The position numbers were made by a program, and so were the translations under genes. Of a stretch of DNA of 64,000 nt, positions 10,904-56,535 are shown one piece after another; position 1 is the first letter of the stretch; every line of letters begins with the position of its first letter. The notes beneath the pieces are model-generated. The model ran no database searches, was not told the origin of the DNA, and saw only the letters and a program-made list of their open reading frames with translations. Origin of the DNA: a virus (lineage: Duplodnaviria > Caudoviricetes); IMG/VR virus record IMGVR_UViG_3300031993_000067, positions 3,622-67,621 of that record; one strand, written 5' to 3'.

Positions 10904-10949
10904 ATTTTTGCCCCTTTTTGTAACTTATTGTACCTCAAGAATTTGTGTT

Positions 10950-11267
10950 ATGGATAGGGACATCAGAAAACGGATCGCTATGGCGATTGACACCCTCTGC
11001 GGAGGGAATAAGTCTGAGTTCTGCCGCCATATAGGGCGAAAAGCGGATGCCGTGAAGGATATTGTCGGGGGTAAGGGTACTGCTCCGGGATTCGACCTTA
11101 TATATGATATTCTTGCTTCCGACTTGGGAATTTCCCCAACCTGGCTCATCCTCGGAGACGGCGATATGGTAACAAAGCCGAAATCCGAGGAGTTGACGCC
11201 AGCGGCGCCTCCACAAACAATCATTATCGGTAACTTGGAAGAACTCGCAAAAATATTGAAGAAATGA
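10950..11267 (+). CDS. CI-like HTH repressor 1, no S24 peptidase domain
   Basis: CGGNKSEFCRHIG...PGFDLIYDIL...ISPTWLILGDGDM, typical Bacteroidales XRE repressor. Confidence 0.8.
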   Translation: MDRDIRKRIAMAIDTLCGGNKSEFCRHIGRKADAVKDIVGGKGTAPGFDLIYDILASDLGISPTWLILGDGDMVTKPKSEELTPAAPPQTIIIGNLEELAKILKK

Positions 11268-34000: not shown

Positions 34001-36929
34001 CGGGGATGATGCCAACCTCCGCTACTACAATGTCGATGCGGACAAGGGCCTGACATACAACCCGAACACCGGCGCATTGAAGGCGGGGTCTTTCGTGAAG
34101 CGCGGCGGCACATCGGCGCAGTTCCTCAAGGCGGACGGCAGCGTGGATTCCAACACCTACCTTACCACGTCATCTGCGGCGGACACTTATGTCCTGAAGG
34201 CCGGGGACACCATGACCGGCGACCTGACCATCAAGAAGTCCGGCGGCGGCGCGTTGAACATCCAGGGTTCCACGCACAACGCCGCTTCTGGCGAGATCGT
34301 CTTCAATCCGCACGGGACGCAGATACGGAACGGCGCGAAGATCTCTGCGGTCGCCGGAAGCACTTCCTACGACCTCATCGACATCGTGTTCTCGGCGTCG
34401 AACAACCGCACCTCTCCGTATTCCCCGGATTGGTACGAAACCCTCCGCATCAAATACGACAAGTCGGTCATCCTTGCCAACGCGGGCATCCTCAAGTGGA
34501 TGAACAACCCTTCGGAGGGCGACCCGACCGCGATCGACTGCATCAAGCTGACCTCCGGGAACATCTTCATCATCGGGCGCGGAGTAGCGAACAACTCCTA
34601 TGATTCCTACCTCGAAGGCAAGTCCGTCTATATCCGGACCGGCACCTCGACCTTGACCTCCCGCCTTTCGGTTTCGCAGTCGGCCATCACAATGAGCCTC
34701 GACACGATTCCCAATGTGGACAATAACTACAAGCTCGGAAATGCCAACAGGTATTGGAAGGAGTTATACACGAAGAAGGTGTACCTTGCCGATGGTATCT
34801 ACATCGAGTATGTTGACAACTCCGGCAACGGCTATGTCCATATCAACGCACCGCTCGTGACCGACGGGGACCAAATAGTGCTTTCCGGCACCCCCGGCGG
34901 CGGTGGCGGCGGCGCGTCCTTCCTCGCGGACCTCAACGATGTGACCCTCACGAACCTCGCAAATACCAACCTCCTCCAATGGAACGGCAACGCCTGGGTG
35001 AATGTCGCGGCGAGTTCCGTCGGCGTGACCACGGAAGGTACGGAGGCGAACTTGAACGCAGGGACGCCCTCGACCGATAAGATGGTGTGGGCGCCCGCCA
35101 CCCTCGCCTCATGGCTGGCCAACAAGGAATACTCCACCACGGCGAACACGGTGTCGAATGTCGCCGTCGGCGGCTCCGGGCATACAACAGAGCTTGCCAT
35201 CACGAAAGCGGGGTCAACGAGCTACATCACCGTTCCGTTCGCAACGATGACCGAGCGACCGAAGTATGTCACCCCGACGCAATCCGCAGATGCCATCGAC
35301 CTCAACACCATCCTGGCCGGAGGTGGCATCACCAGGAATGTCTGGAATCAAGGCTACTGGAATCACGCGCCGAGCGGCATCGGCTACTTCGGCGCGGCGT
35401 GGCAGATCAACGCCCATTCATCGGAGACGGGCGCGATGCAATTCGCGTGGAACGGCAACTACACCGGGACGACCCCGACGAAGAGCCTCTGGTTCCGCGT
35501 CCGCAATAGCGAGCAATGGGGCGACGACTGGCATCTCATCTACGACAGCGCCAATCTCACGAAGTCCGTCATCACCGGCTTGCTCGATGCGGGTAACGGC
35601 ACCTACCTCCCGCTCTCCGGCGGCACGATGACGGGTAGCATCAACATGACCGACGGGAAGCAGATCATGGATTCCACCGGCACTTGGGCCATGCTCGGCC
35701 TCTCGTCCACCGGCGTGTTCTATTGCGGCCCCGGCTACCAGGTGTCCTCCGCTTTCCTCATCCGGTCCGGCGATATGGACCTCAAACACAGAAGGTACAC
35801 CTCGAACACCGCGTCCGGCTACAACGAGTACACGATTTTCGACGAGGCGAACGCAAACCTCCTTTCCGTAAGCTGGTCGGCGCTCAACCTCACGGCGGCT
35901 GGCACCCTTACGGCGAGCGGCCTCGCTACCCTCAGCGGTGGCATAAGCACCACCATGGAGACGGCGAGCGGAACTATCACCGCGTTGAACTTCGCTCTTT
36001 CGGCGACCAACGCAAGCTCCAAGATCGTCTTCGCCCGCGAGGGTTACAACTACCTGCAAATCCCCGCCAACGGGCAACTCAATGTGGTCGCCAATTCCTC
36101 GTTGAGCGCGGCGAACTCCACGGCCATCTTCACGGCTACGGACATCCGGCCCGGCTCCAACGGCGGGTACAATCTCGGCTATGTCGATTCCTCGTCGGCG
36201 GACAACAACCGCCTCTGGAATGTGTACGCGCAGGAGATGATGCTTATAAAGGCCAACGGCCCCACCCTCACCTTGCGCGGAACGGGCGACAATACCGACG
36301 GCGCGACCATCCTGTTCAAGAGTTCGAGCGCCAACCACAACGGCTTCAAGATTGCGGTTGAGAAAGCGGCGTCCAGCAATAACCGTGGCCGTCTCGCGCT
36401 CAACTTCTACTCCTCGAATGTCACGACCGACCCTTACGAGCCGGATTGGAAGCGGGCCATGAGGGTTTCCTACAACGGGAATGTCCTCATTGGGGCGTCG
36501 GACTTCTCCAACACCCTCTACGCCTACGGCACGGCGGTTATCGGCTCTGCCACGGCCATCTCCGGGGCGACCCTCTCCGTCACCGGCGTGATAGCGTCCA
36601 CGGGCGACCAGGTGGTCACTTCCGACATTCGGATGAAGACCAACCTCAAACCGATTGAACTCTCCGTGGAGCAGATTGCGAAGTGCCGCGCCGTCACCTT
36701 CGACTGGACCACGGGAGGCCACTCCTTCGGCTCCGTCGCCCAGGATTGGCTCGACATTCTCCCGGAGGCCGTACACAAGGGAAACACCCTCTCGCTCGCC
36801 TACGCACAGCTCGGAACAGTCATCGGCATCACACTCGCCAATCACGAGACCGAGCAGGACACGGAGATACGGGAATTGAAAGAAAGAGTGAAATACCTCG
36901 AAGAAGAAGTGAAACGATTAAGAAGTTAG
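31047..36929 (+). CDS. Baseplate hub / tail fibre with C-terminal peptidase S74 intramolecular chaperone
   Basis: 1960 aa; N-terminal hub-like region (TRLFAYGS); fibre repeats; SDIRMKTNL...GSVAQDW...LAYAQL followed by coiled coil. Confidence 0.85.
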   Translation: MAHFSIISSQGQHPVLFTGAPRYVGAYLKPGYLEFPEIGSPTAIGWHVGDYVVYSRTGRTYRLYGTPKATEQSDANKFGAAFLYENVQFFDDMKQWELCPFTDLVPDDNTVHFSTQGVVSFFGKPLNVAERLQACLENQYGANSWEVRIVETSDADILEILNTEVEFSVSGVNCLQVLDKVYETWNKLGWAYTIENGKNILTIGAPNDRTAANTTEGYAYDDGLVAVEKSIANAAEIGTRLFAYGSMKNMDATYYRGLDIYQAESVDIEHLMIPISNWGTTSSKPDARKAYIQDATAIAKMGIIPRTAYFDGTGDLPDIHPTIERMTIGEVYDAGGAGYLPDLNEWSRDQRIDEIIGATNPSDEGAASDMGVRFKESISDTFDAVTEVGSANDFIEPDIYTTTLTKSGRLVLKFGRNIQTITLNAAWDARFNVATMEVANGNTVETIPLNIAPVSSSSFSFVLPEQVVIQNAVAGTLRVGLNIFVLDNAPTAETDTVTIAIDGDTTIEGGVEYMLDKTFSVVIPQIGFDIEKYAALGEGKKISMKTGMCAGRDFEIKEVNYQIATDSWHLTLYRSNDEDLNILFPNTDYQIASGDQFVLLDIAMPEMYVTVASQRLLEAAQKLLADICEEKPFYAPQIDAKAVVDESRVLLEGLWMDISFNGTQEYALIDSITIDENGSNIPIYDVALRQEKGLDWTENIGSASSGRSSVSVSGNESSEVRGTVTSVGLTAPEGLNVSGSPVTTAGILGLSLAPGYKIPRTEELAQYFELGGSGDPSGFVRLKSEYNFLGPRKGLIFDAQTSRIESNPPDLYVRTIDGQRVLYSPLPLITEGDQIVLSGTPGGGGGSNYLRLLEDVYHNESGVRRYASGNVGSTDLLAYDSTKGWYAVQLGSGLSLSNGVLTASGGGGGTSYTSGTVEELNAGSGTVDRVWAPSVLASWLSGKDYVMRTTAQTITAAHTFSNGLKLNTASSSWTNSDRALYFGANGDDANLRYYNVDADKGLTYNPNTGALKAGSFVKRGGTSAQFLKADGSVDSNTYLTTSSAADTYVLKAGDTMTGDLTIKKSGGGALNIQGSTHNAASGEIVFNPHGTQIRNGAKISAVAGSTSYDLIDIVFSASNNRTSPYSPDWYETLRIKYDKSVILANAGILKWMNNPSEGDPTAIDCIKLTSGNIFIIGRGVANNSYDSYLEGKSVYIRTGTSTLTSRLSVSQSAITMSLDTIPNVDNNYKLGNANRYWKELYTKKVYLADGIYIEYVDNSGNGYVHINAPLVTDGDQIVLSGTPGGGGGGASFLADLNDVTLTNLANTNLLQWNGNAWVNVAASSVGVTTEGTEANLNAGTPSTDKMVWAPATLASWLANKEYSTTANTVSNVAVGGSGHTTELAITKAGSTSYITVPFATMTERPKYVTPTQSADAIDLNTILAGGGITRNVWNQGYWNHAPSGIGYFGAAWQINAHSSETGAMQFAWNGNYTGTTPTKSLWFRVRNSEQWGDDWHLIYDSANLTKSVITGLLDAGNGTYLPLSGGTMTGSINMTDGKQIMDSTGTWAMLGLSSTGVFYCGPGYQVSSAFLIRSGDMDLKHRRYTSNTASGYNEYTIFDEANANLLSVSWSALNLTAAGTLTASGLATLSGGISTTMETASGTITALNFALSATNASSKIVFAREGYNYLQIPANGQLNVVANSSLSAANSTAIFTATDIRPGSNGGYNLGYVDSSSADNNRLWNVYAQEMMLIKANGPTLTLRGTGDNTDGATILFKSSSANHNGFKIAVEKAASSNNRGRLALNFYSSNVTTDPYEPDWKRAMRVSYNGNVLIGASDFSNTLYAYGTAVIGSATAISGATLSVTGVIASTGDQVVTSDIRMKTNLKPIELSVEQIAKCRAVTFDWTTGGHSFGSVAQDWLDILPEAVHKGNTLSLAYAQLGTVIGITLANHETEQDTEIRELKERVKYLEEEVKRLRS

Positions 36930-42996: not shown

Positions 42997-43020
42997 GGCA
43001 TTGAGATTAAGCGTTCAAAT

Positions 43021-43857
43021 TTAAGAATTTAATCCGAAAAATGTTCTCGCCTGGTCGTTGAGGTCAACGGATGTGGGGACGCAGTAACGCTGCGTCATCT
43101 GGACAGAGCTATGCCCGGCGAGGCGGCTGATGGAGAGGAGGTCCGTGCCGGTCTTGGCGAGGTTCGTGCAGAAGCTCACCCTGGCCGTGTGGCTCGTGAT
43201 GAACTCCCACTTCTCCCCCCGCTCTTCCTTTCCGTTCTTGAAGACCACCACGGCGGTGCGGATACCCGCCCGCCTTGCCAGGCGCCGGATAGCATCGTTG
43301 TAGGTGGCGAGGTAGAGTTCGCGCCCATTCTCCTTCAACCACTCGATCCGCTCCGCGATGCCGGGACGCAGGGGGATGGTGGTAGTGGTCTTGGTCTTCT
43401 GGCTCACATAGGTGAGCATACCCCCATCCGTCTTTTCCGGGCAGACGGTGTTGGTGTCGGAGATACGCATGCCGGTCCAGGCGGACACGAGGAACTGGTT
43501 CAGGACTATCTCCTCGATCTCGTTCTTGGGGGTCACGCGCTCCAGCGCCTCAAGTTCGTCCGTGGTAAGGTAGGTTTTAAGCGGTTTTTCGCCCCTGGCG
43601 GTGATGATGGACTCCCAATCCTTCGGGAGTTCTATATCGTCCGAGAATCGCTTTAAAATGGCCTTAAAAGCGGCGCATACGGTCTTGGCCGTGTTGGGGG
43701 CCACCGTCCGGGCTAAATGGTCACGAAACTCGTAGAAATTGCTCTTCGTGAGGCCGTCCCAGGTGAAGATGCCAACGGCGCGGAGGTGCTTGATGATAGA
43801 AGCGGCCTGGCCGGGGTTGGCGGCGGCGTGTTCAATAGACTCAAATAACTCTTTCAT
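43021..43857 (-). CDS. Second tyrosine recombinase (no arm-binding domain)
   Basis: WTGMRISD, HTARVSFCT, LAGHSSVQMTQRY catalytic motifs. Confidence 0.9.
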   Translation of the reverse strand: MKELFESIEHAAANPGQAASIIKHLRAVGIFTWDGLTKSNFYEFRDHLARTVAPNTAKTVCAAFKAILKRFSDDIELPKDWESIITARGEKPLKTYLTTDELEALERVTPKNEIEEIVLNQFLVSAWTGMRISDTNTVCPEKTDGGMLTYVSQKTKTTTTIPLRPGIAERIEWLKENGRELYLATYNDAIRRLARRAGIRTAVVVFKNGKEERGEKWEFITSHTARVSFCTNLAKTGTDLLSISRLAGHSSVQMTQRYCVPTSVDLNDQARTFFGLNS

Positions 43858-43957
43858 AAGGCAAAGATTCAGATGTTTGGAAGACCGGGGAGGTATCACC
43901 CCCTCCCGGCCTTTTACCCCATAAAAACACAGTTAACACGACGCGCCAAGCGGCTGA

Positions 43958-44167
43958 TTATCTTGACGCGACAGGTTCTACATAGCCCGACATATTGATG
44001 CGGCCAATATCATATTTCTCGATGAAACTATGATTTCTCCGGTATTCGTAGGCGGAAGAAAAAGAGTCGAACTTTTCCGCCTGGTCGAGTTCTTTCGTCG
44101 TGGTAGGCCAGCAACCCACCCTTGACGCGAGGTAACTCCCGAAGCGCATAAGCACATAACTTGCCAT
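43958..44167 (-). CDS. Small hypothetical protein (array)
   Basis: 69-aa ORF. Confidence 0.6.
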   Translation of the reverse strand: MASYVLMRFGSYLASRVGCWPTTTKELDQAEKFDSFSSAYEYRRNHSFIEKYDIGRINMSGYVEPVASR

Positions 44168-44178
44168 AGCGCCAGGGA

Positions 44179-44445
44179 TTAGGACGCGACATTATACGAG
44201 ACCCACTGGCAGAATTTGGGGAGCGTGAAAGCCCTATACGATGCGTTTGTCATCGCGCCAAAGTCCTTGCCGCTTGCTACGAAGTCGGGGAGGTTCCCGA
44301 TATACACAACGAATACATGCGTCACCACGCCCATCCCGTCAGGGAAATCGACATGGACGGCCAGGTAGGTGTCGCCCTCCTCGTCCTTGAGGACATCGGC
44401 GACGTAATCGCCGAACTCCTGATTCTGAGATACAAATGTGAACAT
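44179..44445 (-). CDS. Small hypothetical protein (array)
   Basis: 88 aa, preceded by hairpin plus leader. Confidence 0.7.
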   Translation of the reverse strand: MFTFVSQNQEFGDYVADVLKDEEGDTYLAVHVDFPDGMGVVTHVFVVYIGNLPDFVASGKDFGAMTNASYRAFTLPKFCQWVSYNVAS

Positions 44446-44508
44446 AGCGCAAAAAATTAGAGGTTATTGGCGAGCCTGCGCGGTATCACCCGCGCAAGCC
44501 CGAAGAGG

Positions 44509-44763
44509 TTACAGGCCCAGTTCTTTGACCAAAGCGTCGAAGTCCAGGTTGTCCAGCGAGACGCCCCCCTCGTTGTAGTTCTCGTAGGAGAGCATGCCTG
44601 GACGGACCGGATCGTCGTCAGTGTTGACGACCACCTCCCGGTGTTCCTTCTCGACATGCACCCAGACCTTGGGGTTGCGCCCGGTTGCGGTTGCGACGGC
44701 AACGATGACGGTGCCGCGAATTTCGGAATCGGTCTTGCCGACCGTGTTTTCAATGATGATCAT
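44509..44763 (-). CDS. Small acidic protein (array)
   Basis: MIIIENTVG..., acidic C-terminus. Confidence 0.7.
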   Translation of the reverse strand: MIIIENTVGKTDSEIRGTVIVAVATATGRNPKVWVHVEKEHREVVVNTDDDPVRPGMLSYENYNEGGVSLDNLDFDALVKELGL

Positions 44764-44781
44764 AAGCAAAAGTATTTAGGA

Positions 44782-45090
44782 TTAAACGGTTGCTGCGTAA
44801 ACGCTCCTGGGGTACATCTTGGCTCTTGCGGCCTGGAACTCCGGGGAGTTGTTGATGGCTTCACTGGACATGCGCCAGTGGTTCTCCGGGAAGGCGATCT
44901 TTGCGGCCACGCCAGGCATGTAGTCTGAGCCATCGGGGATGGCCACCCCCTCCGCCTTCCCTATGTTGATAAGATACTGCGAATAGATGCGGAAGACACG
45001 CTGCCAGGTCTTGCGGTCGTGCTTGGAGCGGTCCCAGTTATCGCAGATTCTCCGGTACTGCTGGAAGATTGTAAGTAATGATTTAGCCAT
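44782..45090 (-). CDS. Hypothetical protein (array)
   Basis: MAKSLLTIFQQY..., 102 aa. Confidence 0.6.
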   Translation of the reverse strand: MAKSLLTIFQQYRRICDNWDRSKHDRKTWQRVFRIYSQYLINIGKAEGVAIPDGSDYMPGVAAKIAFPENHWRMSSEAINNSPEFQAARAKMYPRSVYAATV

Positions 45091-45103
45091 AACACTAAGG
45101 TCT

Positions 45104-45409
45104 TTAGATTTCCACCTGTCGTGTCTCTTTCGAGTCCGCGATCCGGCGGCGGATTTCCTTGTAGCAGGTAGGACCGACAGGGAAGAACCCTTGACCTCTC
45201 CCTCCGTCGTCAAGTACATCCTTTACATCCCCCTGTTCGTCAGTCCAGAAGCCGCACTCCAATAGTTGGACCAGCTTCGTCGTTTTGGGGTTCAGCCTCC
45301 TGCCGCAGATTTCACAATGCTCGAAGTTGTTCCCTGCGTAGGTCCGATCATAGTTGAGATCATGGCGGTCGTCCTGCCAGTAGGGTGTTACTTTAATGGT
45401 CTTCTTCAT
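45104..45409 (-). CDS. Zn-finger-like small protein (array)
   Basis: HCEICGRRL...FPVGPTC. Confidence 0.7.
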   Translation of the reverse strand: MKKTIKVTPYWQDDRHDLNYDRTYAGNNFEHCEICGRRLNPKTTKLVQLLECGFWTDEQGDVKDVLDDGGRGQGFFPVGPTCYKEIRRRIADSKETRQVEI

Positions 45410-45476
45410 ATCCATGTGATTTTATGGTTATCTGGAGAGACGGGAGGGGTATCACCCCCTCCCCCCCCTCTTTTTG

Positions 45477-46478
45477 TTACGCATTGGCCCAGTAGGACCA
45501 GGTGTGAATCTTGGAAACGCCGTAGCGTTTCAGGTAGGCATGCAGGCGCTTCTCGAAGCCGTCCCGGACGAAGCGGAGAGCAGCGGCCACGGCCTTGCGC
45601 TCCTCGTCTGTGAGCTGGCGCCAGCCCTCGCGCACAGCGTCCCAATAGTCTACGCTGTACTGCTTGGTCCGTATCCAGGCCGTGTTAGAGTCGTACTTGT
45701 CGGCGGCGACAAGGACCGGATCGTCGCCTTCCTCCAGGAACTTCAATTTGACATCGAAGTCGGAGAGGTTCGCGTTGAGGAAGTAGGCGCGAAGTTTCTC
45801 CTCGTCGGCGAGGAGGGAATTATACAGGTCGTAGTCGGGGCCTTCGTCCTCGAAACAGAACTTGTTCTCGATCGACGGCTTGCTGATCAGATAGAAGCCC
45901 TCCGGTAGTTTGACGCAGGCAGCGGTTTTGCGCTCCTTGTATTCCCGCCCTCTCGTGCATGTGTCGAGATATTCGCGGCGGGCGACGAGGTATGGGGCCT
46001 CAGCCTCCTCTTTCTTCGCCGTGGCGGTTTTAGCGCCTCCAAGAAGGGCGCGGACGGCCTCCTCCTGGCGCTTGGAGAAAATCCAGCCAGGACCGCAAGA
46101 CAGGCGAGGATTGAAGCGCCCGCCCAGCGCCTTGAGACTGTCAGAAATGGACCTCGTATCACCCGTAACGGCGATAGCTTTCTCGGAATAGTCAACGACC
46201 TCGAAAGAGGACGCCGGAGCCTCCTCCTGGGCCTCCTCCTTCATGGCGGCCTTGACATCGTTGAAGTCGGCCTCGGACAGCCACTCCATGCAGGAGAGAC
46301 CGTCGGGGAAGCCCTCGGTGTCCTGGATCATAAACTCAGGGTCACGCTCGTCCTTGTGCGCGTCCTTGCACTTAGCCAGGAAATCGGAATAGCTTGCGCA
46401 GTCGGAGAGGTCGATCCACGCACCGGCGATGCTGCCGGAGTTGTACTTCCCATAAGTACTAACATAAACTTGTGCCAT
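45477..46478 (-). CDS. ardA: ArdA antirestriction domain fused to two further domains
   Basis: VYVSTYGKYNSGSIAGAWIDL...DPEFMIQDTEGFP is the ArdA N-domain; then VDYSEKAIAV...GGRFNPRL..GWIF; then KPSI...FEKRL..YLKRYG. Confidence 0.8.
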   Translation of the reverse strand: MAQVYVSTYGKYNSGSIAGAWIDLSDCASYSDFLAKCKDAHKDERDPEFMIQDTEGFPDGLSCMEWLSEADFNDVKAAMKEEAQEEAPASSFEVVDYSEKAIAVTGDTRSISDSLKALGGRFNPRLSCGPGWIFSKRQEEAVRALLGGAKTATAKKEEAEAPYLVARREYLDTCTRGREYKERKTAACVKLPEGFYLISKPSIENKFCFEDEGPDYDLYNSLLADEEKLRAYFLNANLSDFDVKLKFLEEGDDPVLVAADKYDSNTAWIRTKQYSVDYWDAVREGWRQLTDEERKAVAAALRFVRDGFEKRLHAYLKRYGVSKIHTWSYWANA

Positions 46479-46536
46479 AGCACGGAAGCCCTGTTTATAT
46501 CCCGCCGGACTTGCGGTGCAAAATTTAGAAGGCGAT

Positions 46537-46570
46537 ACAAATATAAGCAGAATATTTTAAACTGCAAAAT
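46537..46570 (-). promoter_or_regulatory. Early promoter copy 2 (drives the ardA sub-array)
   Basis: TTTTGCAG...TATATTTG on the minus strand; near-identical to 51419-51452. Confidence 0.75.
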
Positions 46571-46592
46571 AAATTTGAAGTATTTCGCGGTT

Positions 46593-46913
46593 CTATTCCT
46601 TGGTGGTGCGCTCCAGGCTCTCCACTGCTTTTCTTACAGCATCCTCTAAGGTTGTGCCATAGAAATCATGCTTGGTCCAGTGCGGCCAATCTCCGATCTT
46701 TACACCCCACTTAGGTTCTCTAAACTCCTCGTGGTACACAACCTTATGAGTGCCGTTTTTAAACACTTTCTCCTTGATGGTGTCCCCGTCGTTGATCGTT
46801 TCTCCATCGCGGTATATGTGGAAGCCAACAATATGCGTAGGGAAACACCTCACAGTTAAATTGTGCTTCTGGATCAGGGAGAAAATCTCCTCAAAGGTCA
46901 TTGAGTTTGTCAT
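46593..46913 (-). CDS. Hypothetical protein (array)
   Basis: 106 aa; TACCTTTG elements upstream. Confidence 0.65.
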   Translation of the reverse strand: MTNSMTFEEIFSLIQKHNLTVRCFPTHIVGFHIYRDGETINDGDTIKEKVFKNGTHKVVYHEEFREPKWGVKIGDWPHWTKHDFYGTTLEDAVRKAVESLERTTKE

Positions 46914-47021
46914 GGCTTTTTGTTTTTGTTAAGGCAAAGGTAGGGCAAAGGTGTGCAATGTATTTGCACAATAAAAACGAATTGGAGGACCAGGCCCCGG
47001 TCAGGGGGCCAGGCCCTTGCA

Positions 47022-47630
47022 TTATGCCGCGACAGCAGCGAGCAGGCGCCCGCGCTGCGTGGTGACTTTGTGATATACGCATGTCCCGTCGCTAAACAGC
47101 CCGCCCCGCTCGAAGATGTTGTCACCCACAAGATCGGCGCAAACACCTTCCAGATACGAGATGACTCCCTCCAGGGCTTCGTTTATCTTCTTGTGGATGT
47201 TGGCCTCCTGCATTTTCTTGATCCCGGCGTTCCAGTCGGTCCCGCGCTCGCAATAATCCCAGTCCTCGAAGATGTCACGAGCGATGGCCTCCAGGTCGTC
47301 GTAGTCGTTCATGCTGAAACGGTCATTCCAGCCAACGGCCTCGAAATCCCAGTCCAGCGTGGCGTCCTGGTAGTAGCCTGGCCGCACGATGATCTTTCCG
47401 TACAGGTTGAAACAGTAATTCCGAGAGAGTTGGACATCGCCCCACTTAAATTCAAGGATGACCGTCCCCTCGTCCCTGTGGTATCTTGCGCCATGCTCCG
47501 GTTCGTTCATGATCCGGAATCGCTCCCCGTCGGGCCGATTCTTGGCAGCAGCCTGGATGTCGCGGATGGTTTTGTTTTCAACGACATAATAGTATTGTGC
47601 GTTGATCTTGGAGAAATTTGTAGTACCCAT
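47022..47630 (-). CDS. Hypothetical protein (array)
   Basis: 202 aa, MGTTNF...PGYYQDATLDW; hairpin plus leader. Confidence 0.75.
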   Translation of the reverse strand: MGTTNFSKINAQYYYVVENKTIRDIQAAAKNRPDGERFRIMNEPEHGARYHRDEGTVILEFKWGDVQLSRNYCFNLYGKIIVRPGYYQDATLDWDFEAVGWNDRFSMNDYDDLEAIARDIFEDWDYCERGTDWNAGIKKMQEANIHKKINEALEGVISYLEGVCADLVGDNIFERGGLFSDGTCVYHKVTTQRGRLLAAVAA

Positions 47631-47689
47631 AATGCCAAAATTTAGAAGTTATTTGCAAAGGGGATGGCGGCCAGGCCGTCCCCTCCGTG

Positions 47690-48046
47690 TTATGCTTTCT
47701 TTGGATTTTGCATTGAAAGGGCCCTTTGTTCGCAAAAACTGGTCCCACTGCACCAGTTATAGCGATCTTTCAGGGTCTCGATGTCATCCACCAGTTCCTT
47801 GTATTGTTTAGGAGTCAAGTCGTGAAGGTGGAACGGGTCCCACTTCTTATAAAAGCGCATCGCGGCGCGGTGGGTTTTCAGGACGTCATCCTGGCACTGG
47901 CCGCACCTGTTGAAATCCGTCTTCGGACGATTAAAGACAGCCGCAGACGTGGAGAAATACGGAGAGGCATTGCTACCAATAGTCTTGTAGCTAACTTCAA
48001 AAATTTCCGTCCTTGATAGCTGGAACGTAAGATTTAATTCGTTCAT
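47690..48046 (-). CDS. Hypothetical protein (array)
   Basis: 118 aa, CGQCQD; best-matching leader. Confidence 0.75.
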   Translation of the reverse strand: MNELNLTFQLSRTEIFEVSYKTIGSNASPYFSTSAAVFNRPKTDFNRCGQCQDDVLKTHRAAMRFYKKWDPFHLHDLTPKQYKELVDDIETLKDRYNWCSGTSFCEQRALSMQNPKKA

Positions 48047-48086
48047 ATCACAAAATTTAGAGGTTAATTTGAGAGGGTGGGGCCGA

Positions 48087-48449
48087 TCAAAGCCCCGCCC
48101 CCTTGATCCTGGCGGCGAAGGTGTGCGCCCCTATCTTTTCGAGAAGATAGACGGCGACCCGCGCGTCCAGGTTTCCAAGCAGCGCCGCACGGACGCAGCA
48201 GTCAAGTTGCAACAGCGGCATGCCGCAACCACCCCGGCGCCGGTAGTCCTGGAGCGCTTCACGAAGCACCCCCGCCAGGTAGTTAGGCTCCGCCTCCATC
48301 GCGGCGTATGTGTCGGACAGCTCAGGGCTGGCCGGGACCAGGGCCTCGCCCTCGCTCTCCTCGGTCCGTTTACGATCCAGGCGGCGAGCCAGGCCCCACA
48401 GTGCGCCAATGATTGCACCGACGCCCCAGCAAAGAAGAATTATTTTCAT
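48087..48449 (-). CDS. N-terminally anchored membrane protein (array)
   Basis: MKIILLCWGVGAIIGALWG. Confidence 0.6.
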   Translation of the reverse strand: MKIILLCWGVGAIIGALWGLARRLDRKRTEESEGEALVPASPELSDTYAAMEAEPNYLAGVLREALQDYRRRGGCGMPLLQLDCCVRAALLGNLDARVAVYLLEKIGAHTFAARIKGAGL

Positions 48450-48502
48450 AAGCCAGGAAATTAGATGGAAGGAGGGGAGCCGGTCAGGGCGCCCCTCCTT
48501 TG

Positions 48503-48934
48503 TTATTGCATTACAGTCATTAAGGCCATAAGGCCCATAGTTGCATGGACCTGGGCCTCGTTTTCCATAGGCGGGAGGTCCTGGAGGCGCTTTTTATTCT
48601 CCTCGGTCAGCCCGGCGTGAAGTTTCTGGAAGGCGCCAAACATCGCCTCGCAGCGCTCATTTTCCGCCGCAGCCTCCCCGTCGATCAGTTGACGCTTCAT
48701 TTCCGCCTGCATGTCCTTGGGGAACTTCCTAATCATGCCCTTGAGGGCTGTTTCATAATCGAAGCGTTCCCAGGTCCTATTGATATACGATACCTTCGTG
48801 TCCCGGACATCGTAGTCCAGCGACACGACCGTGTGACAGAACCCGTTCCGGGTCCAGGTGGTGTAACATTTGAAACGGTACTCCTTCCCGTTCACTTTGC
48901 AGGAAAACTCCTTGCAGTTTCTTTTCTGTGTCAT
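48503..48934 (-). CDS. Hypothetical protein (array)
   Basis: 143 aa, TRNGFCH...YINRTWERFDYE. Confidence 0.75.
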   Translation of the reverse strand: MTQKRNCKEFSCKVNGKEYRFKCYTTWTRNGFCHTVVSLDYDVRDTKVSYINRTWERFDYETALKGMIRKFPKDMQAEMKRQLIDGEAAAENERCEAMFGAFQKLHAGLTEENKKRLQDLPPMENEAQVHATMGLMALMTVMQ

Positions 48935-49003
48935 AATTGCAATTTTTAGAGGGTTTTGGAAGGGGAGCGGGGAATCACCCCCGCCCCTCTTTATTGCTGC
49001 CGT

Positions 49004-49249
49004 TTAGTCCTCGAAATAGCCGTCCACAAGCGACAACACAAAGTCCTCGCCGTGCGGCGTTTTCCCTTGCACCTCGAAGACATAAAAGCCCTTTTCGCGG
49101 TTAAAGAAATCGTCCTTGCGGGTGACCTCCCAGCCGGAGGCGATAAGATTGTCGCGCTCCTCGATCATGGCGGCCTTGGCGTGGTCCCAGTCCTTAAAAT
49201 ACCGATCACACCGGCGCCCGCCGACGGTCTTACAGTAGATTGTAAACAT
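49004..49249 (-). CDS. Small hypothetical protein (array)
   Basis: 81 aa with hairpin plus leader. Confidence 0.75.
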   Translation of the reverse strand: MFTIYCKTVGGRRCDRYFKDWDHAKAAMIEERDNLIASGWEVTRKDDFFNREKGFYVFEVQGKTPHGEDFVLSLVDGYFED

Positions 49250-49310
49250 AATGCAAAAGTTAGGGGTTTGGAGAAGAGGAGGGGAGTCACCCCCTCCCCC
49301 TCTTTTCTAT

Positions 49311-49514
49311 TTACGGCGTCACGATCACCAGGCGCCAGTCGCGCGGGGAGCTGTTACATTCATAACCGGCGCCCCGGAACGCTGCGACCAGGCGGCAGGC
49401 GTCGGCGGACGATCCAGCCCGGACTAAATATTTACCGTCTTCGTCCTCCCGGACATGCGGTTTCTGGAAACTGGCGCGAGGCGTCGCCAGGGCAATAGCT
49501 TTGATTTTGTCCAT
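49311..49514 (-). CDS. Small hypothetical protein (array)
   Basis: 67 aa with hairpin plus leader. Confidence 0.7.
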   Translation of the reverse strand: MDKIKAIALATPRASFQKPHVREDEDGKYLVRAGSSADACRLVAAFRGAGYECNSSPRDWRLVIVTP

Positions 49515-49574
49515 AATGCAGTATTTAAGGGGTTATTTGAGAGGCTGGGGGCTGTCACGCCCCCGGTCCCTTGA

Positions 49575-49799
49575 TCATGAAAACAGCACGTCCATTTCCG
49601 TAATATCCACGTCTGTGTCGTTTTCCTCACAGTAAGCCTGTACGCACTCGCAAATATCATTTGCGAGACCATAGTCCGCCTGCTCGATAGGGATTCTATA
49701 ACGATCACACAGGGAGATAGCGGCGGCGGCTCTAATATCGTAGTCGTCGATTCGCTCCCGGCAAAAGGCTTGCACGGCCTTGATTGTATTCTCGCTCAT
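49575..49799 (-). CDS. Small acidic protein (array)
   Basis: 74 aa, D/E-rich, with hairpin plus leader. Confidence 0.75.
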   Translation of the reverse strand: MSENTIKAVQAFCRERIDDYDIRAAAAISLCDRYRIPIEQADYGLANDICECVQAYCEENDTDVDITEMDVLFS

Positions 49800-49857
49800 A
49801 ACGCAAAATTTAAGGGGTTACTTGCAGCCTGCCAGGGGATCAACCCCGGCGGGCCGT

Positions 49858-50022
49858 TTAATATCTGGAGAAAAGGACGTCTTCGAGGACTTCCAGGCAC
49901 TGAGCCTTCCCCCACGCTGGCGCCCAGGAGCCCGGCGCGTAACGGTGCAAGCACTCAGAGACAAACCAGGCCGGGCAAAGCGCCAACAGCCATAACACAA
50001 TACGGATAGCTTTGTAATTCAT
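49858..50022 (-). CDS. Small hydrophobic protein (array, 54 aa; not in the ORF track)
   Basis: MNYKAIRIVLWLLALCPAWFVSECLHRYAPGSWAPAWGKAQCLEVLEDVLFSRY, flanked by two elements. Confidence 0.65.
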   Translation of the reverse strand: MNYKAIRIVLWLLALCPAWFVSECLHRYAPGSWAPAWGKAQCLEVLEDVLFSRY

Positions 50023-50076
50023 AACACAAGATTTTAGAGGTTTGGAAAGAGAGGGGACGGCCAGGCCCCCTCCCTT

Positions 50077-50286
50077 TTATTTGTCTTCCGTATGATAGCA
50101 AAGCGTATCCCCGGCGGTATGCTCATACACCCGGAAATTCGTCTTGAAGCCATCATTCTTTGCGGCCTCCTGGAGCCTGGCGGCAGCGCTAAGCGCTTTT
50201 TCCTTGTCGAAGTACAGGGAATGAATCCCGGACCAGCCCCGGGAAGATTGCCGGATTTCGTAAATCTTAGTGCGAATAACGATCAT
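50077..50286 (-). CDS. Small hypothetical protein (array)
   Basis: MIVIRTKIYE..., leader directly upstream. Confidence 0.7.
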   Translation of the reverse strand: MIVIRTKIYEIRQSSRGWSGIHSLYFDKEKALSAAARLQEAAKNDGFKTNFRVYEHTAGDTLCYHTEDK

Positions 50287-50342
50287 AATGCAAAAATTTA
50301 GGGGGTTTGAAAGGGGAGGGGCGGTCAAGCCCCGGCCCTTTG

Positions 50343-50483
50343 TTAGCCTTCGTAATATTCACGAATAATTACAGCGCCATTCTCTTTGATAAGGTCAGGG
50401 AGGAGGACCGCCAGCTCCCCGGCGTCAACTGCCGTATCTAAAATGATACAGCCAGTTTCTTTGTTTAAAACTTCGAATAACAT
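50343..50483 (-). CDS. Small hypothetical protein (array, 46 aa)
   Basis: MLFEVLNKETGC...; ATG start follows the element at 50484-50544. Confidence 0.6.
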   Translation of the reverse strand: MLFEVLNKETGCIILDTAVDAGELAVLLPDLIKENGAVIIREYYEG

Positions 50484-50544
50484 TGCACAGGAGTTTAAAA
50501 GGTTTGCAGCCTGGCCCCCGGTCAAAGGAGCCAGGCCGGAAATG

Positions 50545-50811
50545 TTAACTAACAAGATACGACCCGCCAGGAGTCTCTACGCGAAGCCCGCCAGGGACCC
50601 GCCAGCCGCAAGAGAAACCAAAGCTATTATACGAAATGATTCTGAAATCTTCGCCGCCTTCGTTTTCCATCATGTTTTTGCAGTCTCTTTCCGCCAGCGC
50701 CTTTGCGCACGAAAAACGACCGTAACAGTCGGAAAGGGTTGAATCTGTCGAAAGATCATACATTTTGATCCAGCGCTTGCCGCGCTTGATGGTGCTGTTG
50801 ATTTGTTCCAT
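50545..50811 (-). CDS. Small hypothetical protein (array)
   Basis: 88 aa, YGRFSCAK...IISYNSFGFSCGW. Confidence 0.75.
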   Translation of the reverse strand: MEQINSTIKRGKRWIKMYDLSTDSTLSDCYGRFSCAKALAERDCKNMMENEGGEDFRIISYNSFGFSCGWRVPGGLRVETPGGSYLVS

Positions 50812-50875
50812 AATGCAATTTTTTAGAGGGTTAAAGAGAACCCCGGCCAGCGGTCAAGCGGGCCGGGATTGATAG

Positions 50876-51202
50876 CTAAGAAATGAAGTACAAAACGCCG
50901 TCAATTTCCAGGCTGATAGCTTCCTGTTGCATGATCTTGCAAAGGTCCTTACAATAAGCGACGACCGCGCGACGGTTACGAAGTTTTTGAGCCAGGCTGC
51001 AAAAGCCCACACAAATAGTTACATTTTCCAGGACAAGCCCGGCGGACTGAGAGACCCAAGCGCCGCGAACGTCGTAACTTGTCGCACCGCCGAAAAGCCC
51101 GGAAAGGAAAGAAAGCGTATTTTCAACCTGCTTTGAGTTGTCGCAAGACTCAGAAACGGCGACCGTCGAAGGTACGTAAATTTTGAAATTGTGGCGTAAC
51201 AT
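50876..51202 (-). CDS. First array gene, ferredoxin/PII-like fold candidate
   Basis: MLRHNFKIYVPST...FGGATSY...GAW...MQQEAISLEIDG. Confidence 0.7.
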   Translation of the reverse strand: MLRHNFKIYVPSTVAVSESCDNSKQVENTLSFLSGLFGGATSYDVRGAWVSQSAGLVLENVTICVGFCSLAQKLRNRRAVVAYCKDLCKIMQQEAISLEIDGVLYFIS

Positions 51203-51418
51203 AATGCAGTTATTTAGAGATTTGAAGCCCGCCACGCCGCGAAGCGTGACAGGCTGTATTTGTCGGTTTTCCGATCCACCGAAAAGCTAAGAAGAAGAAA
51301 GTTTATTTACTTTCCGTTTCCCTTTGTAAGCCGGGCGTATCTACCTGCAAACCGTAAGCCGGGAAACTGTCAAAGGCTGGCCGCGAGTGTGGTTAATTCG
51401 TTTCGTTCCTTTGCCTAC

Positions 51419-51452
51419 ACAAATATAACTCAAATATTTTAAACTACAAAAT
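51419..51452 (-). promoter_or_regulatory. Early promoter copy 1 (head of the array)
   Basis: TTTTGTAG-TTTAAAATATT-TGAG-TTATATTTG on the minus strand. Confidence 0.75.
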
Positions 51453-51514
51453 ATTCAGACACTTTTTTTCATCAAAATATCAAATAAATATTTTTAATAA
51501 TATACCTTTGCAGC

Positions 51515-51781
51515 ATGGAAACAAATCAAGTACTTGAGCGGGTCCGCTCGATCATGAAGGACCGGAAAATAACACAAAAGGACCTTGCCGCAAGGCTGGG
51601 AGTTAGCCAAAACCAAGTTAGCCAGTATCTGGCAGGAGTGCCACGCCTGGATACATTCCTAAAAATTGCCGCCGCGCTGGGGCTGGAAGCCGCCGAACTC
51701 CTGAAAGACGAAGCGCCGACCACCACAACAGCCGCAATTTGCCCCCAGTGCGGAAAGAAGCTAACTATAACCCTGAAATGA
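51515..51781 (+). CDS. XRE-family HTH regulator with C-terminal Zn ribbon
   Basis: ITQKDLAARLGVSQNQVSQYL; CPQCGKKL; TACCTTTG immediately upstream (near-leaderless). Confidence 0.85.
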   Translation: METNQVLERVRSIMKDRKITQKDLAARLGVSQNQVSQYLAGVPRLDTFLKIAAALGLEAAELLKDEAPTTTTAAICPQCGKKLTITLK

Positions 51782-51847
51782 AACTTATATCGTACACGAT
51801 ACGAGTTTCACCAAAAAAGTTTCAAAAGTTTCAAATCTTTGTGACCC

Positions 51848-52417
51848 ATGCCCGGACAGACTACCAAATTAACGAACCGCGAAAGAGCCGCCATTTTACT
51901 CCACGCCGCAGGACTGGAGGACGACTGGACCGAACTCTATTTTATAGCCGAGGACAAAAGCAGGAAAGACGCCGAAAGTGTTAAATTTGTCGCTGCAAGC
52001 GTTTCCAGATGGAAAAACAGCGACAAAATTAAAAACTGCCTTTCCGAGTTTCGCAAACTCCTGGCCGACCGAGAAGCGGACGCCAGGACCGAAGGACGCG
52101 AGGAAGGAAGAAGGACCGAGGCCGAGAGGATGAACAAAGGCGGAGGAAGTGAACCCACCGAAAGCAACCGCCGCCGCGAAGTTGCCGCCGCCGTTGACTA
52201 TTACGACCCCGAAAACCAGCGCAAGCAGATAAATAGAATCATTCAGGAGTCAAGCGACGACCCGAAAACGCAGTTAGACGCGATCAAAGCCATACAACAG
52301 ACCCAAAGAGACGACAAACAGGCCGCCAGAGACCAAAAACAGGTCCGGGCATACTTGCCGCAACGCTGTGAAACTTGCCCTCTCTACATTAAAGCCCGCG
52401 AAAGGACTATAAAATAG
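51848..52417 (+). CDS. Terminase small subunit-like protein
   Basis: Y..AE......AASVSRW HTH pattern, charged linker, C-terminal CETCPLY; followed by a G-run and pac-like region. Confidence 0.5.
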   Translation: MPGQTTKLTNRERAAILLHAAGLEDDWTELYFIAEDKSRKDAESVKFVAASVSRWKNSDKIKNCLSEFRKLLADREADARTEGREEGRRTEAERMNKGGGSEPTESNRRREVAAAVDYYDPENQRKQINRIIQESSDDPKTQLDAIKAIQQTQRDDKQAARDQKQVRAYLPQRCETCPLYIKARERTIK

Positions 52418-54932: not shown

Positions 54933-55134
54933 TTTCCAGTGCGGATGGCGCCGCATCGCCTGCCGTGTGATCCTGTGGTTCAACGGTCTGCTTCGCGGTC
55001 TTGGGAGGTGGCTTTTCCACCTCTCATTCGCCGGGGTGCAGACCAGGCTGTATAAGCGGTGGTACATCGAGCGCCAGGAGCGTATGACTGTTGACGAAAT
55101 CAGAATGACGTATGGCGGTGGAACGGAGTCTTGA
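54916..55134 (+). CDS. Small hypothetical protein
   Basis: 72 aa overlapping both neighbours. Confidence 0.55.
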   Translation: MAGLSNFQCGWRRIACRVILWFNGLLRGLGRWLFHLSFAGVQTRLYKRWYIERQERMTVDEIRMTYGGGTES

Positions 55135-55627
55135 TCTCGGTCTGGCGGAAATAAGAAGTAGTATGGCCATACCTACACAACCCATAGATTTCAGCCCGTC
55201 GAAGGTCTTTCTCCAGAAACTTGACGGGTCGGAGCCGCCGATCGTCGGCGAGTTCCCATCGGCTCCACCTCTGCCGAAAAAGGTGGGTGGGGAACGGTGG
55301 TGGACGGGATGCGACACCGGCCCGGGATTCGGCGAGACCGTATTGACCGCAGAGGTGTCCGTTCCGCCGGAGGCCGTCGCGGAGTTGAAGCGTATGGCGC
55401 AGCAAGCTCTCCTCGACACTTTGGTTAATGTGATTCGGAAAGCGCGATACATAGACCGCTATTTTCACGTTTTTCATTTGACGGAGGAGATATATCGGCG
55501 CGATTCCGCCCTCTGCCACCGGCTCCACCGGATGAACCTCACCAGATACCTCCGCTCCAAATGCCTCTATCCGGCCCGTGGCATCCGCGTCACCCTCAAG
55601 AGCGGCGCGGTGGTCTGGCGGAAATAA
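55112..55627 (+). CDS. Hypothetical protein
   Basis: 171 aa, last gene of the rightward unit. Confidence 0.7.
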   Translation: MAVERSLDLGLAEIRSSMAIPTQPIDFSPSKVFLQKLDGSEPPIVGEFPSAPPLPKKVGGERWWTGCDTGPGFGETVLTAEVSVPPEAVAELKRMAQQALLDTLVNVIRKARYIDRYFHVFHLTEEIYRRDSALCHRLHRMNLTRYLRSKCLYPARGIRVTLKSGAVVWRK

Positions 55628-55694
55628 AAAAAGCCGCCCACACATCTCTGCGTGGACGGCACCTCTAAATTTTGCATTACGGATTTAAAAATCC
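55626..55694 (-). ncRNA. Putative trans-acting small RNA antisense to the shared start-codon leader of the array genes
   Basis: GGAUUUUUAAAUCC hairpin + GUAAUGCAAAAUUUAGAGGU seed + GCCGUCCACGC/GUGUGGGCGGC terminator + U7; own promoter. Confidence 0.75.
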
Positions 55695-55698
55695 AGTG

Positions 55699-55729
55699 CA
55701 AAGATAGTGAATCCGGAGGGGAAATCAAA
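55699..55729 (-). promoter_or_regulatory. Consensus Bacteroidetes primary-sigma promoter for the sRNA
   Basis: -33 TTTG (55726-55729), 19-nt spacer, -7 TATCTTTG (55699-55706). Confidence 0.8.
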
Positions 55730-55746
55730 GCCTCTCCGGATTTTTC

Positions 55747-56535
55747 TTATTCGACTATCCCCATCCGGCGCAGCCTGCCCCGGATCGCGTTCTCCAGGAA
55801 GGTGCGGTACTGCTCGCGCAGGAGTTCCGGCGGATTGTGCATGAGGACTACGGAGGCGAAGGCGTCACGCGCCTCTCTCGCGTCAGCCAGAGTGTATTTC
55901 CCGGTGATGAGCGATCCGTTGCGCCTGGTGTAGTGATAGACGACCTCGGTGCTGATGAAGGTCCGCTTCCCGGCGAACGCGAACTCCATGTTGAAGATCA
56001 TGTCCTCGAAGACTCGCACTCTGGGGAAGGATGTGATGGCTTTGCGCCGGTAGAGGCATCCGGTCACATGGCCGACATCGCAGGTAGGCGTGAATAGGAC
56101 GGGGGAGAGCCGGTGCCGGAGGCCGGGCGGTTCTATCTTCCAGATGCTCTTCTCTCCAGTTGCCTCCCATTCGTTCATCTCAAGCCCCACGATGCGGTCC
56201 GCTTCCGGGTTGCGCTCCATCTCGGCGAGGAGGGTGCTGAGGGCTTCCGGGAAGAGCCAGTCGTCGGAGTCGAGGAAGGTGACGAAGACGCCGGATGCCA
56301 CGGCGAGACCGAGGTTGCGGGCGTGGAAGAGGCCGTTGTTCTTCGTGGATGAGACGATGGTAAACCGGGGGTCGCCATCCGTCTGGGCGATGATCTCGCG
56401 CAGACTTCCGTCGATGGAGCCGTCGTTGACAACGATGCACTCCCAGTCCTCCTCGGTCTGCTCTTTCACGGAGTCCAGGCAGCGCTCGATGTATTTCTCG
56501 GTGTTGAAGACCGGTACGATGATGGATGTCTTCAT
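55747..56535 (-). CDS. Glycosyltransferase family 2
   Basis: SIIVPVFNTEKYIERCLDSV...IVVNDGS...ARNLGL...FLDSDD...FEDMIF. Confidence 0.9.
   Translation of the reverse strand: MKTSIIVPVFNTEKYIERCLDSVKEQTEEDWECIVVNDGSIDGSLREIIAQTDGDPRFTIVSSTKNNGLFHARNLGLAVASGVFVTFLDSDDWLFPEALSTLLAEMERNPEADRIVGLEMNEWEATGEKSIWKIEPPGLRHRLSPVLFTPTCDVGHVTGCLYRRKAITSFPRVRVFEDMIFNMEFAFAGKRTFISTEVVYHYTRRNGSLITGKYTLADAREARDAFASVVLMHNPPELLREQYRTFLENAIRGRLRRMGIVE

Follow-up and report, generated by a model that had tools for sequence, protein, structure and literature searches.

The accessory array and its boundary units

We analyzed a 64-kb window (positions 3,622 to 67,621) of the 67.6-kb virus record IMGVR_UViG_3300031993_000067, which carries an array of small accessory genes whose boundaries share a hairpin and an AT-rich leader next to the start codon; all coordinates are positions in this window unless another contig is named. 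The window encodes a large terminase, a major head protein, a DnaB-like helicase, a primase, an integrase, and a second tyrosine recombinase, a gene set that indicates a temperate tailed phage. A Bacteroidota host is suggested by promoters of the TTTG/TAnnTTTG type and the absence of Shine-Dalgarno sequences, as well as by relatives found in metagenomes of rumen and gut and among metagenome-assembled genomes (MAGs) of Paludibacteraceae/Bacteroidales. The array consists of ~20 small genes on the minus strand, extending over ~8 kb from 51202 down to 43021, and helix-turn-helix (HTH) proteins are encoded adjacent to it. Its last gene is that of the second tyrosine recombinase (43021-43857, minus strand), which matched generic phage integrase families only. 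Pfam searches gave no family for array proteins apart from the ArdA N-domain of the gene at 45477-46478 (ardA).

Most array genes are preceded by a composite unit in the order stop codon, GC-rich hairpin, accessible AT-rich leader, and ATG. A stable hairpin was present in 15 of the 16 units examined, with a stem of 11-16 bp at about -25 to -58 and a predicted energy of -18 to -30 kcal/mol (z -2.6 to -5.2). The stems vary in sequence yet pairing is always kept, and on the mRNA strand the window hairpins lack a U-tract. When the predicted array RNA was folded locally, leader positions -20 to -11 were its most open stretch, with a mean unpaired probability of 0.80, compared with 0.34-0.36 for the hairpin region and a mean of 0.45 for the whole transcript. 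The first-pass annotation had handled the hairpin separately from the leader; the leader is one half of a hairpin-leader cassette. The hairpin loops are mostly 6 nt long and of the form YUGAYM, often GUGAUA. Loops of this kind are common to the rumen phage and to distant human-gut phages despite different stems (window 43879-43918, 44472-44501, and 45435-45470; human-gut contig L244 12416-12482 and 12945-13006), and they may be read by something, such as a protein or a tertiary contact.

Two promoters matching the Bacteroidota -7/-33 consensus (PMC7366714) face the array on the minus strand. The array promoter (51420-51450) has a -33 TTTG at 51447-51450, a 19-nt spacer, and a -7 element TATATTTG at 51420-51427; the ardA promoter (46538-46568) has its TTTG at 46565-46568, the same 19-nt spacer, and TATATTTG at 46538-46545. 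The two modules are near-identical over ~45 nt (46530-46575 and 51418-51465), which suggests that the promoter was duplicated within the array. The array promoter gives a 5' untranslated region (5'UTR) of ~210 nt before the first cassette (51203-51413, minus strand). The first ~100 nt of this 5'UTR are almost identical in L100, a close relative described below, with differing cassettes downstream. No Rfam match was found in the 5'UTR, which may be an additional regulatory RNA element.

The leader motif and a candidate complementary RNA

On the mRNA strand the leader has the consensus AACCTCTAAATTTTGCATT, with ATG directly after it. Eleven strong copies are flush with minus-strand ATGs at 44443, 47628, 48044, 48932, 49247, 49512, 49797, 50020, 50284, 50809, and 51200, and four weak copies are present at 43855, 44761, 48447, and 50481. 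No spacer separates the ATG from the 3' leader block (TTG plus 4-5 nt) in the strong copies. A further copy, TGCAAAATTTAGA, lies at 46517-46529, 38 nt before the ardA ATG at 46478; it starts 2-3 nt past the predicted transcript start, and the ardA promoter thus places the leader core at the extreme 5' end of the predicted ardA mRNA. All of these copies, as listed in the first-pass annotation, were read in the sequence at the positions claimed. Coverage of the array is partial, with ~11-13 of 20 genes having a good site.

A position weight matrix (PWM) was built from the 11 strong sites and used to score ~2,000 other ATGs of the whole 67.6-kb record. The strong sites scored 24-38 bits and the weak copies 8-15, while the best of the other ATGs reached 7.9. 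A search with the 22-mer consensus at up to three mismatches returned 4 matches against 0.00 expected, and the 20-mer consensus at up to two mismatches occurred six times in 151 Bacteroidales genomes of ~1.8-8 Mb each (once for the reversed-pattern control). The leader is confined to the array, and its near-absence from these genomes shows that it is not a generic AT-rich initiation context, the objection that the first-pass annotation had itself raised. An exact IUPAC search of IMG/VR for the leader gave 0 matches with a pattern that was stricter than any copy in the window.

A candidate anti-leader small RNA (sRNA) of ~70 nt is encoded on the minus strand at 55626-55697, ~4.4 kb upstream of the array and outside its transcription unit. 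Its promoter (55699-55729, minus strand) has a -33 TTTG at 55726-55729, a 19-nt spacer, and a -7 element TATCTTTG at 55699-55706. The complete unit reads TTTG-N19-TATCTTTG, a 14-nt 5' hairpin (55681-55694), 21 free nt (the seed, 55660-55680), a 12-bp terminator stem-loop (55633-55660), and U7 (55626-55632), and its predicted fold of -33.5 kcal/mol (z -5.3) leaves the centre unpaired. No leader-like sequence other than the segment 55660-55681 is present on the plus strand of the whole record, and this inverted copy is closer to the leader consensus than any single cassette. The seed is complementary to the consensus leader over 21 consecutive positions, from -19/-20 to +3 and including the AUG. 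With a strict seed, duplexes of -16.7 to -21.5 kcal/mol were predicted at 11 of 20 array starts, always from -19/-20 to +3, and these equal or beat the best of 2,037 other ATGs; the ardA 5'UTR site pairs with the seed at -22.2 kcal/mol. Rfam gave no match in the window at the gathering score, nor at E <= 10 on 55500-55850, with FopS and C4 included.

Two further observations concern the candidate sRNA. The plus-strand open reading frame (ORF) 55112-55627 (GC3 0.68) ends 5 nt before the terminator hairpin, which stands between A7 and U7 and may be a bidirectional terminator shared with this converging ORF. The best PWM score outside the array (7.9) belongs to a leader-like sequence at 10925-10952 (plus strand), at the start of the HTH-like ORF 10950-11267, and the same start forms the best non-array duplex with the seed (-16.7 kcal/mol). 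By this leader-like start and its duplex, the RNA might also touch a regulator gene; a 203-aa minus-strand ORF overlapping 10950-11267 seems less coding.

The boundary units, all on the minus strand, are given here in the direction of transcription with PWM scores in bits and predicted seed duplexes in kcal/mol. The first, at 51200-51256, precedes gene 50876-51202 and has its ATG at 51200-51202, leader at 51203-51224, and hairpin at 51226-51256 (31.7; -18.7). It is followed by the unit at 50809-50870, with ATG 50809-50811, leader 50812-50833, and hairpin 50839-50870 (34.4; -19.3), and by a unit with a weak leader at 50481-50537, with ATG 50481-50483 and hairpin 50507-50537 (13.1; -8.5). Strong leaders resume at 50284-50341 (ATG 50284-50286, leader 50287-50308, hairpin 50310-50341; 38.4; -17.6), 50020-50075 (ATG 50020-50022, leader 50023-50044, hairpin 50044-50075; 34.2; -18.1), and 49797-49856 (ATG 49797-49799, leader 49800-49821, hairpin 49825-49856; 36.1; -19.0). 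The next three boundaries are found at 49512-49571 (ATG 49512-49514, leader 49515-49536, hairpin 49540-49571; 36.2; -14.1), 49247-49303 (ATG 49247-49249, leader 49250-49271, hairpin 49272-49303; 29.5; -19.3), and 48932-48991 (ATG 48932-48934, leader 48935-48956, hairpin 48960-48991; 29.9; -16.7). A second weak leader marks the unit at 48447-48500 (ATG 48447-48449, hairpin 48469-48500; 8.0), which is the right breakpoint of a cassette replacement in L100. Further downstream are the units at 48044-48103 (ATG 48044-48046, leader 48047-48068, hairpin 48072-48103; 23.8; -20.8) and 47628-47687 (ATG 47628-47630, leader 47631-47652, hairpin 47656-47687; 35.1; -21.5). Beyond ardA lie a boundary with a degenerate leader at 45413-45470 (hairpin 45435-45470; duplex -4.5), a weak leader copy at 44761-44785 with no stable hairpin upstream (duplex -10.4), and a strong unit at 44443-44501 (ATG 44443-44445, leader 44446-44467, hairpin 44472-44501; 33.0; -18.4). 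The unit at 43855-43918, with a weak leader and a hairpin at 43879-43918 (15.0; -13.3), stands before the recombinase gene.

Cassette exchange and leader/anti-leader covariation

L100 is 98% identical to the window and matches it on both sides of an exchanged stretch, in which eight cassettes (window 51265-48488) are replaced by six other small genes (L100 5826-7990), each with a hairpin and a window-type leader. The breaks in homology fall inside hairpin-leader units, and the comparison is direct evidence of cassette turnover. The 18-nt seed core of the sRNA is unchanged in L100, its 5' hairpin shows a compensatory U-A to A-U change, and one seed substitution turns the G-U pair at the start codon into an A-U pair.

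Related phage contigs were reached via homologues of the ArdA fusion protein. Four further lineages have the same hairpin-leader cassettes with different leaders, and in each of them a co-directional anti-leader matches the lineage's own leader. In G002, ~15 cassettes carry the leader ATTGTTTAACTC..CTACAACT-ATG (short form GTTTAACTC..CTACAACTATG); on the same strand just past the array there is a TATCTTTG box, a CGCC-GUGA-GGCG hairpin, 28 nt complementary to the leader, and a 13-bp terminator stem. The G008 leader is AACTTTCAAAA..ACAACT-ATG (its end also written ACAACTATG), and a unit behind TACCTTTG has a centre that mirrors this leader, followed by a stem and a U6 terminator. L124 and the human-gut contigs L226-L250 have two-box leaders, which in L244 take the form TCTAACTTAAAA, 5-6 nt, and GGAATT-ATG in at least 13 cassettes. 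Contigs of this group contain one to six co-directional units consisting of anti-box 2, a GUGA-loop hairpin, anti-box 1, and a terminator-like hairpin, and a small difference in box 1 between L124 and L244 is mirrored in the respective anti-boxes. The anti-copies of G008 and of the gut group are located on the sense strand, surrounded by genes of the same strand. Three to six paralogous bipartite anti-leader units directly follow a 13-cassette array in human-gut contigs (L244 14593-16344; also L226, L235, L246, L248, and L250), and some of these units run into the preceding ORF at its stop codon and show no promoter.

When leaders and anti-leaders of the different lineages were tested against each other, cognate pairs dominated both cross-matrices. 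Duplexes of -16 kcal/mol or better were formed by 9/18, 15/28, 7/15, and 2/9 leaders on the diagonal versus 0-4 off the diagonal. At least nine contiguous complementary bases were found for 12 of 13 leaders in L244 and 12 of 28 in G002, with cross-talk among the AT-rich L124, L244, and G008 sets in this second test. The cognate antisense RNA proposed in the first-pass annotation is supported by the gene-like anatomy of the window unit together with this covariation in four further lineages.

The search for other carriers was less productive. No anti-leader was found in the fragments examined of L133- and L146-type contigs. Two further candidates, G004 and G005, were rejected as carriers of the system, their repeats being other tandem repeats. 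The MAG loci L020-L024 (Paludibacteraceae/Bacteroidales), which have full-length homologues of the ArdA fusion, showed no repeated leader, nor did other genome loci having ArdA-N only. BLAST of the window and G002 sRNAs against the relatives found nothing, as would be expected if the architecture alone is common. Between hairpin and leader, the G003 contig (L003 6900-8800) has an additional repeated box, AGTACGATAATT, at times in multiple copies.

Other features of the array were also searched. Megablast of 43000-52000 against the phage collection gave no match, and the array protein encoded at 47022-47630 had no relatives among viral contigs. ARAGORN called a 91-nt tRNA-Ser(GCU) at 44051-44141 (minus strand), inside a 69-aa ORF (43958-44167) that has no leader. 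This call is doubtful, as Rfam gives no tRNA there even at E <= 1; the segment may be an attP-related tRNA fragment.

Proposed regulation, alternatives, and comparison with known systems

We propose, with a probability of roughly 60%, that the leader serves as a translation start region without a Shine-Dalgarno sequence and marks cassette genes as targets for repression by a single phage sRNA. The array would be read as long RNAs from the two canonical host-type promoters at the array start and before ardA, and a separate minus-strand gene from ~55697 to 55626 would make the ~70-nt RNA. Its single-stranded centre is predicted to pair with the leader from -19/-20 through the AUG, which should block 30S binding and so repress translation of the tagged cistrons jointly. 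A probable role of the hairpins is to insulate or stabilize the upstream cistron, and the repeated boundaries would double as recombination points for cassette exchange. As the tag belongs to the boundary, new cassettes would enter the regulon on arrival. We infer production of the RNA, repression rather than activation, and timing from sequence; our guess is that the sRNA is constitutive, in the lysogen as well, and sets a threshold overcome only by a burst of array mRNA. Such a mode of action has precedent in the phylum: the Bacteroides sRNAs GibS and FopS pair with start regions devoid of a Shine-Dalgarno sequence and thereby repress translation (PMC7366714, PMC11697453).

Several points weigh against this proposal. 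About 7 of 20 array genes have no good site, and the AUG of ardA itself is among these starts. The A residues at -3, -11, and -12 and the AT-richness of the leader are required in any Bacteroidota start region. The boundaries could be homogenized simply by recombination between cassettes, and an inverted boundary copy could arise as a by-product of recombination. Some units in L124 and the human-gut group have no recognizable promoter and would need processing from operon RNA or action in cis. No anti-leader was found in G003-type phages, all of which are fragments. In the 145-kb G006 an anti-leader was not recognizable either, but this genome is uninformative because its leaders lie on both strands.

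In the most probable of the alternatives, although we consider it unlikely, the leader would be an efficient, unstructured start without a Shine-Dalgarno sequence. It would be carried along with the hairpin as a cassette boundary, with uniformity maintained as cassettes recombine with one another (concerted evolution of the PeSL type), and the inverted copy at 55660-55681 would be a non-regulatory by-product. The L100 breakpoints within hairpin-leader units agree with this, as do the accessibility of the leader and its generic A residues, and the antisense strand of every cassette resembles a seed followed by a hairpin, so that an inverted cassette would mimic the sRNA. Against it, there is a single such copy in the record, it fits the consensus better than any single cassette does, and it is placed exactly between a canonical promoter and a U7 terminator. 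Four other lineages have co-directional anti-leaders matching their own leaders, the hairpin of several lineages lies between two anti-boxes and would not arise by simple inversion, and compensatory changes surround a seed core that is itself conserved.

A protein might instead recognize the leader, either as an RNA-binding translational repressor or activator resembling T4 RegA or through a DNA operator resembling the cluster A stoperators, with the RNA complementarity being secondary; we regard this as decidedly improbable. The motif is asymmetric, occurs in one orientation in intergenic spacers of non-structural genes only, and is accompanied by HTH proteins encoded beside the array and by YUGAYM/GUGAUA loops common even to distant gut phages. 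Stoperators are asymmetric DNA sites to which a repressor binds; they lie within transcription units and follow the direction of transcription. The leaders obey this orientation rule, but the sense-strand anti-copies of G008 and the gut group do not fit it and make no sense as a DNA operator for opposite transcription. The direct junction of the 3' leader block with the ATG favors the RNA level, leaders differ by lineage with anti-leaders following, and no candidate binding protein was identified.

Each leader could also be an internal promoter producing (near-)leaderless mRNAs, with TAAATTTTG as the -7 box and the hairpin as terminator of the previous cassette, in the manner of the T4-type PeSL. 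PeSL indeed combine a terminator with a promoter (PMC2839356), and TAAATTTTG resembles TAnnTTTG and has a G 5 nt before the A of the ATG. However, only ~3.7% of 5'UTRs in B. thetaiotaomicron are shorter than 10 nt (PMC7366714). The box is one base too long, with internal spacing that varies among copies, no TTTG is found 19-21 nt upstream, where the hairpin fills the place, and the hairpins have no U-tract on the mRNA strand. The array is, moreover, already served by two full canonical promoters. As the leaders do not fit the -7/-33 consensus and the leaders of the relatives lack any TAnnTTTG, we consider this explanation very improbable; together with the accessibility of the leader, this bears out the earlier suggestion of an RNA-level tag rather than a promoter.

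Integron attC sites are imperfect inverted repeats with an R''/R' core (RYYYAAC ... GTTRRRY) that are recombined by the IntI integrase. It can hardly be credited that the units are such site-specific recombination sites (attC or shufflon sfx type) used by the tyrosine recombinase at the array end, with the inverted copy as partner site: this recombinase gene is the last of the array and carries a unit, and cassette content differs between near-identical phages, but the short, variable stems are not conserved or flanked by attC-like cores (GTTRRRY and its inverse), inversion between an array leader and the 55660 copy would by our reasoning put no promoter before a cassette, a contiguous recombination core is at odds with bipartite anti-units that have a hairpin inserted, the homologous recombinase in G002 appears to be the only integrase, and ordinary homologous recombination at 20-60-nt repeats would suffice to explain the exchange.

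The proposed regulation by a leader-directed sRNA may extend further, although we offer this extension tentatively and would not bet on it. In many Bacteroidota phages, hairpin-leader boundaries may act as a portable RNA address label, in which any gene placed between a hairpin and its lineage's leader would fall under one or a few anti-leader sRNAs that gate translation of an accessory and anti-defence array. Leader and seed would co-evolve as a lineage code, such that a superinfecting relative sharing the code could have its early genes silenced by a resident prophage, a form of RNA-based immunity, while one with another code would escape. The same logic may explain the start-associated sequences (SAS) of cluster K mycobacteriophages.

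That sRNAs can repress by pairing at the start codon is well established, and single phage genes are under the control of a few phage RNAs (c4, sar, OOP). Our searches of the literature turned up no account of a phage RNA directed at a common leader. One phage RNA for the uniform leader of a dozen or more cistrons in a shuffling array would, if true, be a different design, in which regulation travels with the cassette boundary and not with the gene. Co-regulated accessory and anti-defence genes could then be recognized by a simple rule in gut and rumen phages that have not been cultured, immunity and timing control at the RNA level would be suggested for a phylum with unusual translation start rules, and Bacteroides engineering would gain a compact, programmable one-to-many switch.

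Among known systems, FopS/GibS of B. thetaiotaomicron (RF04319) are similar in host phylum, sigma-ABfr-type promoter, single-stranded seed, and intrinsic terminator, and in using one seed for several mRNAs with a common start-region sequence. FopS/GibS are bound by RbpB and repress translation by pairing next to the start codon; for the window RNA, translation repression is predicted from duplexes. The window RNA has no sequence or structure match to RF04319 in the Rfam search of 55500-55850 (to E <= 10). It also differs in being phage-encoded, targeting the phage's own genes, and having an extra 5' hairpin, and here a uniform leader is repeated inside one polycistronic array and the seed varies by phage lineage. 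The c4 RNA of P1 and P7, as summarized in PMC12197685 from Citron and Schuster 1990, blocks the phage's own translation in trans by pairing around the ribosome-binding site. According to that summary, it is likewise a phage RNA of ~70-77 nt whose specificity differs among related phages (heteroimmunity), but is cut from the same operon transcript and has two target sites serving one function (icd-ant) (PMC12197685). The window RNA has its own promoter and terminator and 11-13 target sites at different genes, and no Rfam C4 match; the promoter-less gut-phage units could fit the operon-processing feature of c4.

T4 RegA (PMC3014915) likewise shuts off translation of many early genes together via a common AU-rich sequence overlapping the start codon; RegA, however, is a protein with loosely conserved operators, whereas the effector here is a predicted RNA and the operators are near-identical. 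The PeSL of T4-type phages have a strong sigma-70 promoter and a working terminator and lie between small non-essential genes (PMC2839356, PMC4122927). Both systems place a stem-loop unit in a variable region, and both units are breakpoints of gene shuffling between close relatives. In contrast to PeSL, neither the window units nor the leaders of relatives have a TAnnTTTG/TTTG pair at proper spacing, the hairpins lack a U-tract, and the conserved part is a translation start region with a matching antisense RNA.

The likeness to cluster K SAS drawn in the first-pass annotation holds as an analogy, but goes no further, as the sequences are unrelated. SAS are short asymmetric motifs that closely precede the ATG of 11-19 non-structural genes; all have the same orientation, the host lacks them, an inverted repeat lies upstream of half of the sites, and four genomes have a lone opposite-orientation copy away from gene starts (PMC3203893). 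The leader sites are similarly all at array ATGs, on one strand, and near-absent from the 151 Bacteroidales genomes. Unlike the leader, which abuts the ATG and has no GGAGG core, the 13-bp SAS consensus GGGATAGGAGCCC contains a Shine-Dalgarno core and stands 3-7 nt from the start codon. The 17-bp inverted repeats of ESAS, which are thought to contain promoters, show no covariation as RNA stems, while the window stems vary yet all pair; SAS have the same sequence across subclusters and no antisense RNA has been proposed for them, whereas the leader differs by lineage. The role of SAS was still called unknown in papers of 2024-2025 (PMC11373665, PMC12699233), and our reading offers a testable hypothesis for these motifs. 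In Mycobacterium phage Anaya (L279), the lone inverted SAS lies at 34871-34883 on the sense strand between gp96 and gp97, in a 385-nt non-coding gap after a terminator. By analogy, and as a lead only, a rightward transcript across this gap would carry an anti-SAS in the same geometry as the window sRNA.

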